From SAR86 cluster bacterium AG-422-E19 (lineage in GTDB: Bacteria; Pseudomonadota; Gammaproteobacteria; Magnimaribacterales; AG-339-G14): a DNA stretch of 64,000 nucleotides. Below are positions 7,034-48,896 of this stretch, piece after piece. Position 1 is the first letter of the stretch; every line of letters starts with the position of its first letter. Location of the stretch: contig QCMR01000003.1 of the NCBI GenBank assembly GCA_003213595.1, positions 7,346 through 71,345 of the forward strand, read 5' to 3'. The notes under the pieces were generated by a model. That model had not been told where the DNA came from and made no database searches. It worked only from the letters and a program-made list of their open reading frames with translations. Position numbers and translations under genes: made by a program.

Positions 7034-8473
7034 ATGAATTCATTTAATGCCAAAAAAATCGGTTTTTGGATTGGACTTGCGATTTTTGTTTGTATCTATT
7101 TCATGCCTGTCCCAGATGGATTATCAAACGAAGGTAAGCTAACTGCAGCTATTTTTTTACTGATGGGAATTTGGTGGGCTACTGAAGCAATGCCACTTTA
7201 TGCAACGGCTTTATTGCCTTTAATTTTCTTTCCTTTGTTAGGAATAGATCCAATTGGAGTAATCAGTAGAGAATACATGAATAAGGTTCAGTTCCTTTTT
7301 GCTGGTGGATTTATGATAGGAATTGCTATGCAAAAATGGAATTTACACAAAAGAATTGCACTTAATATCCTGAAATACAGTGGCATGCAGGCAAAAAATA
7401 TCGTGGCTGCTTTTATGCTAACAAGTGCAATTTTGAGTATGTGGGTTATGAATACTTCTACAGCAATAATGCTCTTGCCAATTGGAGTGTCAGTCATAGC
7501 TGTAATAAATGAGACAGTAAAAGATTTGCTTCCAAGTGAGAGTAAAAATTTTCAATTTGCCTTGTTACTAGGTATTGCATATTCAGCTTCTCTGGGAGGA
7601 ATATCTACTCCAATTGGAACTTCTCCAAATGGCTATCTTATTCAATATGCAAATGATAATTTTAATCAAGATATAGGTTTCATAAGTTGGCTTGCAATAG
7701 GACTGCCTGTGACAATAGTTATGGTACCTCTTGTTTGGTTTATTTTAACTTCTTTAATTTTTCCAATAAATTTTAAGGCTTCTCCGGAAACAAATTCAAA
7801 ACTAAGAACAATGCTTGAAGATTTAGGAAAGATTACTTCAGAGCAAAAAATGGTTGCAATAATTTTCTCGATAACTGCCTTTTGTTGGGTATTTAGAAAA
7901 TTATTAGACGATTTGCCAGGATTAGGTTTTTTAGAAGATGCAGTTATTGCAATGATAGGAGGCATCTCATTATTTTTTGTTAGTTCTAAAAATAGAGAAG
8001 ATTATTTGCTTAATTGGGATGACTTACAGCAAAAATTTCCATGGGGGCTTATCTTTTTGTTTGGTGGAGGTATGGCTTTAGCCTATGAAGTAAATTCCAC
8101 CGGCCTTGCTTCATGGTTAGCTAATTTGATACCTGCAGACGTCAATCCCATTATAGTAGTTGCTTTGATTATATTGTTGGTCTTATTCCTTACAGAGTTA
8201 ACGAGCAATCTAACAACGACAATTACTTTTATGCCCGTAATTGCTAGCGTAGGTTTCAATTTAGATATAAACCCTTTGCTGCTTACATTGCCGCTAACAA
8301 TTGTTGCTAGCTGTGCTTTCATGTTGCCAGTTGCAACTCCTCCCAACTCTATAGTCTTTGCTTCAAACTTAGTTCCCATTCAGCAAATGGTAAGAGCAGG
8401 AATTTTTATTAATTTAATTTCATTTCTATATATCCTTCTTTTATCGGTCTTTTATTACCCTCTAGTCTTATAG
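7034..8473 (+). CDS. DASS/SLC13-family anion:sodium symporter
   Basis: 479-aa polytopic membrane protein with duplicated hairpin motifs VMNTSTAIMLLP and LPVATPPNSIVF, typical of DASS transporters. Confidence 0.85.
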   Translation: MNSFNAKKIGFWIGLAIFVCIYFMPVPDGLSNEGKLTAAIFLLMGIWWATEAMPLYATALLPLIFFPLLGIDPIGVISREYMNKVQFLFAGGFMIGIAMQKWNLHKRIALNILKYSGMQAKNIVAAFMLTSAILSMWVMNTSTAIMLLPIGVSVIAVINETVKDLLPSESKNFQFALLLGIAYSASLGGISTPIGTSPNGYLIQYANDNFNQDIGFISWLAIGLPVTIVMVPLVWFILTSLIFPINFKASPETNSKLRTMLEDLGKITSEQKMVAIIFSITAFCWVFRKLLDDLPGLGFLEDAVIAMIGGISLFFVSSKNREDYLLNWDDLQQKFPWGLIFLFGGGMALAYEVNSTGLASWLANLIPADVNPIIVVALIILLVLFLTELTSNLTTTITFMPVIASVGFNLDINPLLLTLPLTIVASCAFMLPVATPPNSIVFASNLVPIQQMVRAGIFINLISFLYILLLSVFYYPLVL

Positions 8474-8479
8474 TAAAAT

Positions 8480-8502
8480 AACTTAAGTGTTGCACTTAGG
8501 TT
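8480..8502 (+). other. Stem-loop directly after the transporter stop codon
   Basis: AACTTAAGTG-TTG-CACTTAGGTT forms 10 bp (one G-U) with a 3-nt loop. No U-tract follows, so it is not a classic terminator. Confidence 0.35.
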
Positions 8503-8714
8503 CAATATCAGGGGTTCCTAGTAAAGTGCGTTTTATTCTTACCCTGTGAAGGAGGTGGTCCAAATTAGTATTAACGAATTAGCAGGAATTTCAGGGGGTG
8601 CCTCTTGACAACGGGTTAACCCGATTCCGACCTTTTGCCGGTTCGCCCGCTTAAGGTAAGAATTAAGTTGAAATACTTATTCTTAAGCCCCGTCAGAAAT
8701 GACGGGGTTTTTTT
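8503..8714 (+). ncRNA. Candidate structured small RNA of unassigned family
   Basis: There is no ATG between 8474 and 8697. The core is GC-rich (37 of 60 nt at 8591-8650). Nested helices are 8535-8543/8655-8663, 8550-8555/8601-8606 and the hairpin 8612-8623. It ends in an intrinsic terminator. The 5' boundary is a guess. Confidence 0.4.
8687..8714 (+). terminator. Rho-independent terminator
   Basis: GCCCCGTC-AGAAAT-GACGGGGT stem (7 GC-rich bp plus one G-U) followed by T7 (8708-8714). On the minus strand the same hairpin follows the SDR stop codon but lacks a U-run. Confidence 0.7.
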
Positions 8715-9516
8715 ATTCGCTCAAATCGTGACCAGTTGCAGAGATGGTTCCGCCATCGCAAGTAATGGTTTCTCCTACGGTGTAAGAACCAGCCTTTGAT
8801 GAAAGATATAAAGCTAAACCGCCGACATCTTCGGCTCTACCCATTCTATGGACCGGATTTCTAGAAATAATGCCATCATAGTTATGGGCTACTGCTGAAC
8901 CCAACATATCGCTGGGAAAAGGTCCTGGTGCAATGGCATTCACTAAAATGTCTTCTCTAACAAGTCTTGCGGCGAGCACTCTTGTCATGTGATGAACAGA
9001 GGCTTTTGATGCACTGTAAGGGTATGTTTCAAAAACAGGAGTTCCAATACCATCAATTGAACCTATGTTGATAACCCGAGAAGGATCTTCTCTTGTAGCT
9101 TTTTTCTTCAACAGTGGAAGAAACTTTTGCGTAGAGAAGAATACACTTTTGACATTCAGATCCATCACCTTATCCCAGCCTTTTTCTGAGAAAACATCTA
9201 TAGGTTCCGCCCATGCTGCTCCAGCATTATTTACCAAAATATCAATCCCAGATTCTAACGCCTCTACTTCTTTTACAAACTTCTCTATTCCTTCTAGAGA
9301 AGATAAGTCAGATGGAAGAGATGTACATTGAGCATTATATTTTTCCGAGAGTTCTATTGCCTTTGCATCACAAACATCAGCCTTTCTGGACGTAATGTAT
9401 ACAGTAGCGCCATTTGCTAAATACGCTGATGCAATCATTTCACCTATCCCTCGAGATCCTCCAGTGACAACTGCAACCTTGTCTTTTACTGAAAACAAAT
9501 CTTCAATTTTCATCAT
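8713..9516 (-). CDS. Short-chain dehydrogenase/reductase (SDR)
   Basis: VTGGSRGIG, NNAG, and YSASK (YxxxK). Confidence 0.85.
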   Translation of the reverse strand: MMKIEDLFSVKDKVAVVTGGSRGIGEMIASAYLANGATVYITSRKADVCDAKAIELSEKYNAQCTSLPSDLSSLEGIEKFVKEVEALESGIDILVNNAGAAWAEPIDVFSEKGWDKVMDLNVKSVFFSTQKFLPLLKKKATREDPSRVINIGSIDGIGTPVFETYPYSASKASVHHMTRVLAARLVREDILVNAIAPGPFPSDMLGSAVAHNYDGIISRNPVHRMGRAEDVGGLALYLSSKAGSYTVGETITCDGGTISATGHDLSE

Positions 9517-11820: not shown

Positions 11821-13452
11821 ATGAAGCAACTAGAATCTCAACCCTTCCAATCAAAACTAAATTTAAATTCTGAAGAATTTGAGAACAACAAGTCATCCAT
11901 GCTAGAGATGATTTCTGAATTGAATGAACTGTTAGATGAAGCTGAAGCAGGCGGTGGTCCAGATCATCATAAAAGATTAGCAGCAAGGGGAAAACTTCCA
12001 GTTCGAGAAAGAGTTTTCCACTTCTTGGATCCAGATAGTCCTTTTTTAGAAATTAGCGGTTTAGCGGCCTACAAATCTGAATACCCTATAGGTGGCGGTG
12101 CTTTTGCTGGTATTGGAGTATCTTCAGGAATCGAGTGTGTAATCTTTGCAAATGATCCTACTGTTCTTGCAGGAGCAATGCATTTTTACTCTGTAAAAAA
12201 ATGGATGAGATGTATGCAAATTGCACGAGATTGTCGTATTCCTTTCATTCAATTTGTTGAATCTGCTGGAGGTGATTTACGTCCAAGAGCCGGAGCTGCC
12301 GTTGGCGGAATGGGTCATTTTGCTGAATCAGGTAGACAATTTTATGAAATCACTGAGCTTTCAAAACTAAACATTCCAACTATAACTGTTGCTTTCGGAA
12401 CTGCTACCGCTGGTGGAGCTTATCAACCTGGGATGTCGGACTATAATATTTTTGTTAAAAACCAAGCAGATGTTGCCCTTGCAGGACCACCTTTAGTTCA
12501 AATGGCAACTGGTGAAATTTCTTCCAGAGAAGACATTGGGGGCGCAAAAATGCATGCCGAAAAGTCTGGTTTAGCTGAATATTTAGCTGAAGATGATTTA
12601 GATGGAATAAGAATTGCTCGAGAAGTAATGTCTCATTTAAATTGGGATAAAGAAGGGAATAATCCTCGATTTGAAATAGCTCCTCCTAAATATAGTCAAG
12701 AAGACTTGTTGGGAATTATCGAGCCAAGTTTAAAGACTCCTTTTGATATCAGAGAGATAATTGGTCGTATCTCCGATGGATCAAAGTTCGAAGAATTCAA
12801 ACCACTTTTTGGACCGACAATAATTTGTGGTTTTATTTCCATTCACGGATATCCAGTTGGTGTGCTTGGAAATAACGGTATGCTTTTTCCCGATGCTTCT
12901 CAAAAAGCAGCCCACTTCATACAACTATGCAACAAAAGAAATTTACCTTTAGTTTTTCTTCAAAATATCACTGGATTTATGGTCGGAAAAGATTATGAAC
13001 AAGATGGTTCCATTAAAAAAGGAGCTCAAATGTTAAATGCTGTTTCAAACTCAAACGTTCCACATCTTACAGTGATAGTAGGTAATTCATATGGGGCTGG
13101 AACTTATGCAATGTCTGGAAGAGAATTTGGGAATTCTTTCACGTTTCTTTGGCCAACTGCAAAAATTGCAGTAATGGGTGGAGAAGTGATCGCAGGAGTG
13201 ATGTCTATAGTGAGAAGAGGTCAAGCTGCAAGAAAAGGTCTTAAATTTGATGAAAAAGCTGACGCAGAAATTGTTAAAAATCAACAAATCTCTCATGATA
13301 AGGGTTCCAAAGCTTTGAGAGCTACAAGCGTTATTAGTGATGACGGAATTATAGATCCCCGAGATACGAGAAATGTATTGGGAATGTGTTTATCGATTGT
13401 TAATAATAAAGAAGTTAAAGGATCAGAAGGATTTGGGGTATTTAGGTTATGA
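11821..13452 (+). CDS. Acyl-CoA carboxylase carboxyltransferase (beta) subunit, methylcrotonyl-/geranyl-CoA carboxylase type
   Basis: 543 aa of the carboxyl-transferase family, MCC-beta/AtuC type by overall similarity. ATGA overlap with the alpha subunit gene. Confidence 0.85.
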   Translation: MKQLESQPFQSKLNLNSEEFENNKSSMLEMISELNELLDEAEAGGGPDHHKRLAARGKLPVRERVFHFLDPDSPFLEISGLAAYKSEYPIGGGAFAGIGVSSGIECVIFANDPTVLAGAMHFYSVKKWMRCMQIARDCRIPFIQFVESAGGDLRPRAGAAVGGMGHFAESGRQFYEITELSKLNIPTITVAFGTATAGGAYQPGMSDYNIFVKNQADVALAGPPLVQMATGEISSREDIGGAKMHAEKSGLAEYLAEDDLDGIRIAREVMSHLNWDKEGNNPRFEIAPPKYSQEDLLGIIEPSLKTPFDIREIIGRISDGSKFEEFKPLFGPTIICGFISIHGYPVGVLGNNGMLFPDASQKAAHFIQLCNKRNLPLVFLQNITGFMVGKDYEQDGSIKKGAQMLNAVSNSNVPHLTVIVGNSYGAGTYAMSGREFGNSFTFLWPTAKIAVMGGEVIAGVMSIVRRGQAARKGLKFDEKADAEIVKNQQISHDKGSKALRATSVISDDGIIDPRDTRNVLGMCLSIVNNKEVKGSEGFGVFRL

Positions 13453-37343: not shown

Positions 37344-37859
37344 TTAGGCAACTATATATTCCTGCCAATCGGTTTCTATTTTTTTTATTCCTATAGATTC
37401 TTGACCTTTTATTAGATCTCTCAGAGAAGGGGTTTTTACTTCTGGAGAAGGGTCAATTATTTTATCTGCCTTTGATAAATTACAAGATTTACAGCAGGTA
37501 GTTACATTTAACCAATTGGTTTCTCCGCCCTTACTTTTTGGAATTATATGATCAATAGTTAAATCTTTTTTTTCGAAAACATTTTTGCAGTATTGGCAAG
37601 TAAACATATCTCTTAAAAATACATTAGATCTCGAAAACTTAACTTTTTTTGAAAACTTGTAATACTTTCTTAACATGACAATACTCGGTACTTTGAAAGA
37701 TTGCGATGGCGATCTTACTTCCCAATTATCATGTTCTTTAATAACAATAACGTTTCTAGTAAATACTAATTTGACAGCAGTTTTCCAATCTACCGCCGAT
37801 AAAGGAAAATAACTCAGAGGTTTTCCGTTTCCATTAAGTATCAAACAATCGCTAGACAT
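37344..37859 (-). CDS. HNH endonuclease family protein
   Basis: CQYC...LTIDHIIPKSKGGETNWLNVTTCCKSCNLSK (HNH with two CxxC pairs). Confidence 0.8.
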   Translation of the reverse strand: MSSDCLILNGNGKPLSYFPLSAVDWKTAVKLVFTRNVIVIKEHDNWEVRSPSQSFKVPSIVMLRKYYKFSKKVKFSRSNVFLRDMFTCQYCKNVFEKKDLTIDHIIPKSKGGETNWLNVTTCCKSCNLSKADKIIDPSPEVKTPSLRDLIKGQESIGIKKIETDWQEYIVA

Positions 37860-41228: not shown

Positions 41229-41270
41229 TAGAGAAAAATACCTACAAACTTAGTTATAAAAAAATATCTT

Positions 41271-41534
41271 TTAAGCAACTTTAGTTTTTTTATATTCCCT
41301 ATAGTTATTAACTATTCCAATGTAGTTGATATAAGCCCAGATTGGCATGAATGCCAATAACCACCAAAGTTCAGTAACAATTAACAAATAAACTCCTGGA
41401 ATAAAACCAACAGTACCAACAATAAAACCGTAAAAACGAGTTTTTGCATTGAGACTTGTAAGCAAGTAAACACAGATGAATGCAAAAATTTGATCAAAAA
41501 TTTGTGCAGAATTGAAAATATTAAATTCAAGCAT
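41271..41534 (-). CDS. Small 3-TM membrane protein, function unknown
   Basis: 87 aa with three predicted TM helices. A GAGG Shine-Dalgarno lies 6 nt upstream of the ATG, 16 nt after the tRNA-Val gene. Confidence 0.6.
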   Translation of the reverse strand: MLEFNIFNSAQIFDQIFAFICVYLLTSLNAKTRFYGFIVGTVGFIPGVYLLIVTELWWLLAFMPIWAYINYIGIVNNYREYKKTKVA

Positions 41535-41550
41535 TTTTACCTCAGAAACT

Positions 41551-41627
41551 TGGTAGACACGCCCGGATTCGAACCGGGGACCCCTACCATGTCAAGGTAG
41601 TACTCTAACCAACTGAGCTACGTGTCT
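41551..41627 (-). tRNA. tRNA-Val (GAC)
   Basis: Reverse strand: AGACACG TA GCTC AGTTGGTTA GAGT A CTACC TTGACAT GGTAG GGGTC CCCGG TTCGAAT CCGGG CGTGTCT A CCA. Confidence 0.9.
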
Positions 41628-48616: not shown

Positions 48617-48822
48617 TAGCTTGAGTATTTTTTTTTGAGAACTCTTACAAGAAAATAAATTGGAGAAATTATTAAGAAGCAAATCAATAGTTCTGCCCAA
48701 AAATTTAACTTCGTGACACTTCGAATGAAACTTGCCAAGTACATACTGCCAAATCCTAAAAATCCATAAATCACAAATAAAGTAATGTCGATCTTTGAGA
48801 TTATGCTTTTAATGAATTTCAT
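48616..48822 (-). CDS. Small 2-TM membrane protein
   Basis: 68 aa and hydrophobic. It is the first gene of the coupled string, and I recognise no motif. Confidence 0.5.
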   Translation of the reverse strand: MKFIKSIISKIDITLFVIYGFLGFGSMYLASFIRSVTKLNFWAELLICFLIISPIYFLVRVLKKKYSS

Positions 48823-48896
48823 TTTTTGAAATTTTCAATACAGATACTTTCAAGCTTATTTTACTTTAAATTCTTCGTGATAGACTTATTAGTATT

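Follow-up and report, generated by a model that had tools for sequence, protein, structure and literature searches.

Small RNAs (sRNAs) embedded in the 3′ ends of protein-coding genes are well known from enterobacteria, where DapZ and MicL have a promoter of their own and CpxQ and SroC arise by processing. In another known arrangement a riboswitch controls a non-coding or antisense RNA; examples are the B12 riboswitch with AspocR or Rli55/EutX and the S-box antisense RNA of ubiG-mccBA. SAR86 bacteria are among the most abundant uncultured bacteria of the surface ocean. Their streamlined genomes contain very little non-coding DNA, and few regulators are known from them. The only published SAR86 non-coding RNA (ncRNA) found in the literature searched is the abundant ncRNA of Dupont et al. 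(2012), located in a region of glycolysis, glucose-uptake and pentose-phosphate genes (PMC3358033). That RNA was reportedly first observed by Shi et al. in 2009. Here we describe an RNA in a stretch of 64,000 nt from SAR86 cluster bacterium AG-422-E19 (contig QCMR01000003.1; the whole stretch is called the window below). Positions 8487-8714 of the plus strand are a non-coding, highly structured RNA of ~228 nt at the 3′ end of a gene for a DASS transporter. This is a new, lineage-restricted RNA, which matches no catalogued family.

Like the 3′-end-embedded sRNAs, the element lies at the 3′ end of a coding gene whose intrinsic terminator it shares, and does so in both clades in which it was found. 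A candidate for an internal promoter, such as DapZ and MicL possess, lies where the coding sequence ends, and the element is conserved beyond the flanking coding sequence. Compared with these RNAs, it is much longer and more highly structured, has five or more helices and carries a ~90-nt invariant block rather than a short seed; it also comes from an unrelated lineage, SAR86, and has no sequence similarity to the enterobacterial sRNAs. By analogy, its arrangement most resembles that of the 3′-end-embedded sRNAs, while the degree and pattern of its conservation resemble those of ligand- or protein-binding RNAs. The ncRNA of Dupont et al. is likewise non-coding and conserved among SAR86 genomes; its genomic context (PMC3358033) differs from that of the element, which lies between a DASS transporter gene and a gene for a short-chain dehydrogenase.

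The conservation of the element was compared with that of the transporter gene in front of it. RNA identity is 0.98-1.0 where the transporter third codon positions are 0.67-0.97 identical. Compared with the window, loci L005-L027 of clade 1 have third-position identities of 0.67-0.76 and RNA identities of 0.98-0.996; the corresponding values are 0.52 and 0.92-0.93 for L008 and L009, also of clade 1, and 0.42-0.45 (saturated) and 0.75-0.78 for clade 2. In the 89-nt core (8541-8629) clade 2 is still 0.91 identical to the window. The few nucleotides directly upstream of the first conserved base (8480-8486) vary even among genomes with 100% identical RNA (seen in these columns in L001-L027 and L015-L024) and thus serve as an internal neutral control. 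The RNA is conserved while the neutral controls drift, which argues for purifying selection on all 228 nt and not on the terminator alone; as judged from these alignments, the element is under strong purifying selection. An earlier note on this DNA, made by eye from the letters, had proposed that relatives be examined for conservation and for compensatory changes: the conservation in relatives is strong and compensatory base changes are present.

In our comparative model 95-96% of the cells are paired and seven pairs are altered on both sides; when the 3′ partners are slid by 1-3 columns as a control, only 37-52% are paired. Compensatory changes read from the alignment support four helices (P1/P1b, P5 and P6; Table 1). 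The loop of the P1/P1b stem-loop (8492..8529) carries the motif CAGGG, which is invariant and in almost every sequence extends to AUCAGGG; the two-part P1/P1b hairpin is the minimum-free-energy (MFE) fold of each clade folded separately. P5 reads ACCUU..GC/GC..AAGGU in clade 1 versus GCUAGAGGC/GCCUCUAGU in clade 2, with a third variant in locus L148. The compensation in P6 is between AAGAAU/AUUCUU and AAGAGA/UCUCUU, and its loop UGARAU is conserved (UGAAAU or UGAGAU, with UGGAAU in one sequence). Invariant G.U pairs in P3 and the scores of the covariance model (CM), 178 bits on the plus strand versus 16 bits on the minus strand, assign the RNA to the plus strand. The plus strand also folds better than shuffled sequences (z = −3.1, with one of 200 shuffles as good); for the minus strand z = −2.6. 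Compensated helices together with conservation above the neutral level are what is expected of a structured ncRNA in general.

The proposal of the earlier note, a genuine structured plus-strand RNA element ending in an intrinsic terminator, is therefore borne out by conservation and compensatory changes. The specific fold that it drew is not: two of its helices fail the comparison, and the covarying P1, P5 and P6 are missing from the drawing. A 10-bp stem proposed at 8480-8502 exists in this genome only (72% paired across relatives), and its 5′ arm is the hypervariable spacer. A 9-bp helix joining 8535-43 to 8655-63 is 80% paired, with five pairs broken and uncompensated in clade 2. Two mutually exclusive folds had also been suggested, through pairing of GGGGTT with AAGCCCC. 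In our reading of the alignment clade 2 has GGGATT against AAAAACCCC, which gives an A.C mismatch, and the pairing may be no more than chance. Another pair of alternatives can be drawn on paper, AGGAGG:CCUCUU against the three-way junction described below.

A terminator scan recovered the terminator that had been recognized by eye, with a stem running from 8685/8688 to 8707/8710 and followed by seven T. The hairpin has 11 pairs, six of them G-C, and a 4-nt loop, as in intrinsic terminators. Clade 2 retains the hairpin and the U tract with a different stem sequence, and in both clades the U tract overlaps the stop codon of the convergent gene for a short-chain dehydrogenase (SDR). The RNA shares this terminator with the SDR gene. 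Flanked by A5 on its upstream side and by U7 on its downstream side, the clade-2 terminator (L015-L024; ~5683-5712 in L017) looks bidirectional and might end the transcripts of both convergent genes. In clade 1 the U tract is on the plus strand only. The scan found no terminator between the transporter stop codon (8471-73) and 8685, so the transporter transcript must run into the element, which is thus its 3′ untranslated region (UTR).

The source of the window was placed among SAR86-cluster gammaproteobacteria by a protein-anchored scan with one genome per GTDB species; the closest record, BPAJ01000001.1, is not identical to the window. The element is known from at least 40 genomes and metagenome contigs in two SAR86 clades, and its position is constant. 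Searches with blastn and nhmmer found it directly after the transporter in 13 GTDB species genomes of clade 1, with transporters 87-100% identical to the query, and in nine of clade 2, with transporters only ~61% identical. An exact-pattern scan of metagenomes with two invariant anchors gave 109 stretches, among them 20 true copies, every one from the same two clades. In both clades gpsA, patatin, transporter, RNA and SDR follow one another in this order; the locus is therefore orthologous, and the RNA is vertically inherited in two genus-level clades of SAR86. Behind the transporter homologues of other SAR86 and of gamma- and betaproteobacteria (50-61% identity) the next gene begins directly, with no spacer, and the SDR orthologues of other SAR86 clades (65-77% identity) are flanked by other genes and lack both the spacer and the RNA. 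With nhmmer and with the CM no second copy came to light, either in the window or in 39 other loci, and nothing similar was found in viral contigs (IMG/VR), a phage collection or a plasmid collection. A weak second match at 11940-12059, inside a carboxyltransferase gene, was rejected as chance; the core-like stretch of that gene at 11940-11990 on the plus strand (GGCGGTGGTCCAGA...ATTAGCAGCAAGGGG; nhmmer E ~0.1, CM 11 bits) was likewise judged to be chance.

All 4227 covariance models of Rfam 15 were run at the family gathering thresholds and then at E ≤ 10. Only tRNAs in the window pass the gathering thresholds, and the element matches nothing, in agreement with the earlier note, which could match it to none of the RNAs that it considered. 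At E ≤ 10 the region 8400-8800 gives only terminator-driven matches, of 14-21 bits against thresholds of 38-65, and the clade-2 homologue gives nothing relevant. The best match that does not depend on the terminator is RT-5 RNA (RF03026), with 17.5 bits against 45.7 and E = 0.37. We take it as chance: the weak alignment covers 8539-8638, the clade-2 homologue is unmatched and no reverse transcriptase is nearby. The view that the element is not like tmRNA, RNase P, 6S or signal recognition particle (SRP) RNA also holds, since ARAGORN finds no tmRNA and Rfam gives none of them even at E ≤ 10. Resemblances to a dif-like site, a T-box, 5S-like RNA and SRP-like RNA, all considered and without model support, were dropped. 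Core sequence strings gave no match in the literature searched.

Table 1. Positions of the RNA, its parts and its two flanking genes in the window
Feature	Positions	Strand	Basis or remark
DASS-family (SLC13/VcINDY-like) sodium-coupled anion symporter gene	7034..8473	+	Pfam Na_sulph_symp, 2.6e-73
Putative promoter: −35 TTTATT 8451-56, 17-nt spacer, −10 TAAAAT 8474-79	8451..8479	+	inferred from the letters
Hypervariable 7-8 nt from −10 box to first conserved base	8480..8486	+	differs in nearly every genome
Whole RNA, ~228 nt	8487..8714	+	conservation starts at 8487 and stops with the U tract
P1	8492-95/8526-29	+	pair 8495:8526 seen as C-G, G-C and U-A
P1b	8496/97-8500 with 8517-8520/21	+	pair 8497:8520 changes from U-A to G.U in metagenome variant L176
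A/U-rich linker, variable in sequence and length	8530..8541	+	alignments
Near-invariant block CCCUGU-nn-AGGAGGUGGUCC	8542..8561	+	invariant except 8548-49 (35 aligned sequences)
Shine-Dalgarno (SD)-like segment AAGGAGGUGGUCC	8549-61	+	
14-codon frame, AUU to UGA (8606-08), encoding ISINELAGISGGAS	8564..8608	+	intact in all sequences
Candidate three-way junction: P2 8585-89/8624-28, P3 8591-97/8602-08, P4 8612-15/8620-23	8585..8628	+	
Alternative fold b: AGGAGG with CCUCUU	8550-55:8601-06	+	MFE choice
Alternative fold c: H-type pseudoknot, CCCUG with CAGGG added to AGGAGG:CCUCUU	8542-46:8592-96	+	
P5 hairpin, 9 bp and 2 apical bp	8630-38/8649-57 (8630..8657)	+	five pairs compensated
P6 hairpin	8658-63/8679-84 and 8665-68/8675-78 (8658..8684)	+	two pairs compensated
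Intrinsic terminator: GC-rich stem, GAAA loop, seven U	8685..8714	+	terminator scan
SDR gene, convergent, conserved neighbour	8713..9516	−	Pfam adh_short; same place in clade 2

The explanation that we favour, at a little under even odds, is that the RNA is a trans-acting, 3′-end-embedded riboregulator with a near-invariant SD-like segment gated by alternative pairing. Two forms of the RNA would then exist, the 3′ UTR of the transporter mRNA and a discrete sRNA made from its own weak promoter. The acting segment would be the near-invariant and mostly unpaired CCCUGU..AGGAGGUGGUCC. Pairing of CCUCUU with AGGAGG would hide this segment, and pairing of CCUCUU with CAGGGG in the three-way junction would expose it. 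The helices P1, P5 and P6 with the terminator would provide stability and possibly a protein-binding 3′ module.

In favour of this explanation are the occurrence directly after the transporter in two SAR86 clades only, the strong purifying selection, the compensated helices with their assignment to the plus strand, the terminator, the conserved hexamer at a fixed distance described below and the signs that the element is not protein-coding. The short motifs pointed out in the earlier note are all in place: AGGAGG, CCTCTT and the hairpin CGGG-TTAA-CCCG (8612-23). The segment AAGGAGGUGGUCC (8549-61, with A8549 variable and the rest invariant) is complementary along 13 nt, including one G.U, to the canonical 3′ tail of 16S rRNA; the window itself contains no rRNA. 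An exact 9-nt match to the anti-SD complement occurs at 8549, and the two strands of the window together have just one more. A search for the complement of the SD-like block returned only same-sense look-alikes inside genes. The window as a whole looks SD-poor: in a crude survey, approximate because of mechanically called start codons, the upstream match is at most 3 nt long in 34 of 60 ORFs and never exceeds 6 nt.

The 35 aligned sequences show essentially no variation at positions 8542-8629, and for this reason covariation cannot decide the fold of the core. All 16 pairs of the candidate three-way junction are invariant. Every variable core site or indel (8548-49, an insertion after 8561, 8568, 8575-78, 8590, 8598-99, 8618, 8620 and an insertion after 8623) sits in a loop or junction of the three-way junction, and likewise of the pseudoknot. 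Helix P3 competes with AGGAGG:CCUCUU, and the constrained MFEs of six representatives are 0-4 kcal/mol apart; these near-equal modelled energies make a conformational switch in the core plausible.

For the discrete form, a candidate promoter can be read just upstream of the RNA. A TAnnnT hexamer lies 7-8 nt before the first conserved base in both clades (TAAAAT in most sequences; TATTAT, TAATAT, TAAGAT or TAAACT in a few). Clade 2 has a conserved TTGTTC 17 nt before the hexamer with a spacer of variable sequence, and clade 1 has a weak −35, TTTATT, inside the last codons of the transporter. Going by these motifs, transcription probably starts at ~8486/8487. Another plus-strand promoter, considered at TTGACA (8604-09), was rejected by eye as it has no −10 at 16-18 nt.

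A number of points weigh against a gated trans-acting riboregulator. We infer the 5′ end, the promoter and the discrete sRNA from sequence; a consensus scanner called the promoter of neither clade, and the −35 matches at only three of six positions. A crude RNAduplex screen for targets among 60 gene starts gave nothing interpretable. The invariant core of ~90 nt is unusual for an sRNA of the seed type and rather resembles a fold that binds a ligand or a protein. As the core shows no covariation, gating is a purely thermodynamic model. Finally, neither Hfq nor ProQ is among the ten small ORFs of the window that were scanned against Pfam.

The rival that survives best, although we consider it unlikely, is an orphan riboswitch or attenuator acting in cis: an aptamer-like core would sense a ligand or the ribosome and so set whether the terminator at 8685-8714 forms, and read-through transcripts would extend, as antisense RNA, across the convergent SDR-panD genes, which they would repress. 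The B12-riboswitch-controlled antisense AspocR and the S-box-controlled antisense RNA of the ubiG operon are precedents, and our locus shares with such RNAs a conserved structured element, a terminator, the lack of a downstream ORF and a convergent gene facing it. A putative promoter, a complex invariant fold and a terminator stand here in series, and the observation that no plus-strand gene follows was correct: the next one begins at 11821, and all genes before it, from the SDR gene on, are on the minus strand. The core is conserved at the level of a riboswitch and has two near-isoenergetic folds, for each clade RNAalifold also pairs ACCCUGU (8541-47) with the terminator's 3′ arm, and the U tract lies over the SDR stop codon in both clades. 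Still, unlike the riboswitch-controlled antisense RNAs, the element matches no known aptamer class (the Rfam search was negative) and has no supported antiterminator: none of the antiterminator pairings shows covariation, complementarity between G-runs and C-runs is generic in the element, and the stable, covarying P5 and P6 stand between core and terminator. Clade 2, moreover, has another gene beyond the SDR gene and no panD. A conventional cis-riboswitch, with its aptamer 5′ of an ORF on the same strand, does not fit a locus whose next plus-strand gene begins at 11821; nor does a leader-peptide attenuator, as there are no downstream same-strand genes, no regulatory codon run and no supported antiterminator.

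More doubtful is the explanation that the RNA binds a protein or the ribosome, as a ribonucleoprotein (RNP)-type RNA, sponge or decoy, and does not base-pair with mRNAs. Its sites would be the 13 SD-like nucleotides or the conserved loops. Near-complete invariance throughout ~90 core nucleotides is typical of tertiary-structure or protein-contact constraint, an SD-poor genome keeps a near-perfect SD here, and the apical loops CAGGG (P1) and UGARAU (P6) are conserved. With the CsrB/RsmZ sponges the element has in common that it is a small RNA with a terminator and purine-rich loop motifs, but those sponges have 7-22 GGA motifs and the element, as had been counted correctly, has two (8551-53 and 8585-87), the remaining purine motifs being GGG; it is thus not Csr/Rsm-like. 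The lack of likeness to 6S, SRP, RNase P and tmRNA also speaks against a binding RNA, and so does the confinement to two clades, which would be unexpected of a housekeeping RNP. Furthermore, 8558 is G and not A, which makes a wobble against the canonical 16S tail.

We give a slightly lower chance to the core being a sensor, that is, a riboswitch-like three-way junction or pseudoknot which would expose or hide the near-perfect 13-nt SD and turn its signal into trans regulation or antisense read-through. Such a sensor might report a DASS-linked metabolite, or the availability of ribosomes or IF3 by way of the AUU 14-codon frame. As in SAM-II/V and preQ1-II pseudoknots and in RNA thermometers, a CCUCUU further downstream is able to pair with the purine-rich SD-like block, and the geometry permits an H-type pseudoknot (CCCUG:CAGGG with AGGAGG:CCUCUU). 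Switches that sequester an SD precede a real gene, however, whereas only the 14-codon AUU frame follows here, and none of the covariance models of those switches matches.

It is improbable that this frame is translated and that the peptide ISINELAGISGGAS, or the act of translation, is the function, as in a dual-function sRNA or a leader-peptide device. The AUU lies 8-9 nt past the SD-like block, no sequence breaks the frame or lacks its stop, 1-nt indels directly precede and directly follow it but are absent inside, and third codon positions make up four of its seven variable sites. The frame has no canonical start codon, though, and its peptide has no recognisable motif. Its 14 codons contain a single synonymous difference between the clades despite saturation of the flanking third positions, and this missing synonymous drift places the constraint on the RNA and not on the peptide; the changes at its variable sites (~3 synonymous vs 9 non-synonymous, counted by eye) are in about the neutral ratio. 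On this sequence evidence the frame is probably not selected as a peptide, and the reading of the element as a small protein-coding gene, with that single synonymous difference and 1-nt flanking indels between the clades, was rejected. Two related candidates were also dropped: a GUG start at 8546, whose frame is broken in clade 2, and UGA read-through or a selenocysteine-insertion (SECIS)-like reading, where the downstream frame is unconserved.

That the element has no RNA function of its own and is just a long 3′ UTR with a shared terminator, or a DNA site (dif, att or protein-binding) between convergent genes, is very improbable: such a location is typical of terminators and dif-type sites and the clade-2 terminator looks bidirectional, but purifying selection extends across all 228 nt, four helices are compensated, the G.U pairs are strand-specific, there is no similarity to phage or plasmid DNA, and no dif-like 28-mer was seen by eye.

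The transporter passes the cut-off of NCBIfam TIGR00785 (dass) and has SLC13 and VcINDY as relatives in the PDB. The two genes beside the spacer converge, transporter on the plus and SDR on the minus strand, and panD comes after the SDR gene. The composition of the spacer is as first described: ATG is absent from 8474-8697, the first one being at 8699, and 37 of the 60 bases in 8591-8650 are G or C. In the core with P5 (8541-8657) GC is 50%, versus 33% for the whole window. The spacer is also, as had been claimed, the longest stretch of the window free of ORFs and tRNAs; the sole longer gap, 41229-41617, contains an 87-aa ORF and a tRNA. That ORF (41271-41534, minus strand) is hydrophobic, has no Pfam match, adjoins tRNA-Val and occupies most of the gap. 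The next-largest gap without ORF or tRNA is a spacer of 196 nt (48701-48896) between divergent genes, one an ORF of 100 aa that Pfam does not match and the other an ORF of 255 aa.

The clade-2 transporter is immediately preceded, across a gap of 2 nt, by a Sir2-family gene (L017, 3249-3995, plus strand), which is absent in the clade of the window. Beyond the SDR gene, clade 2 has a PHP-domain protein where the window has panD and tRNA-Asp. One ENA contig carries an SDR variant (P0005) of 345 aa instead of the usual 266-267 aa, which could be a fusion or could have lost its stop codon and read into the element on the minus strand. Five of the 20 element-bearing metagenome contigs (L093, L139, L159, L165 and L181) end inside the element or at its border, probably through assembly tangles between the two co-occurring SAR86 clades, which have long identical core stretches in common. 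Elsewhere in the window, a stand-alone HNH endonuclease gene (37344-37859, minus strand; Pfam HNH_5/HNH) lies amid an otherwise housekeeping, streamlined region.

An RNA of 228 nt that stays nearly unchanged while its neighbour genes drift to saturation must matter to the cells that carry it. The ~40-sequence seed alignment, the structure supported in part by covariation and the working covariance model make the element a candidate for a new Rfam family. Its near-invariant core of ~90 nt, with an SD-like block in an SD-poor genome, makes it a reasonable candidate for studies of ligand or ribosome binding; if the core does turn out to be a sensor, a bacterium that is uncultured and abundant worldwide would have yielded a new class of aptamer or sensor. 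The element thus offers a concrete and testable handle on RNA-based regulation in SAR86.

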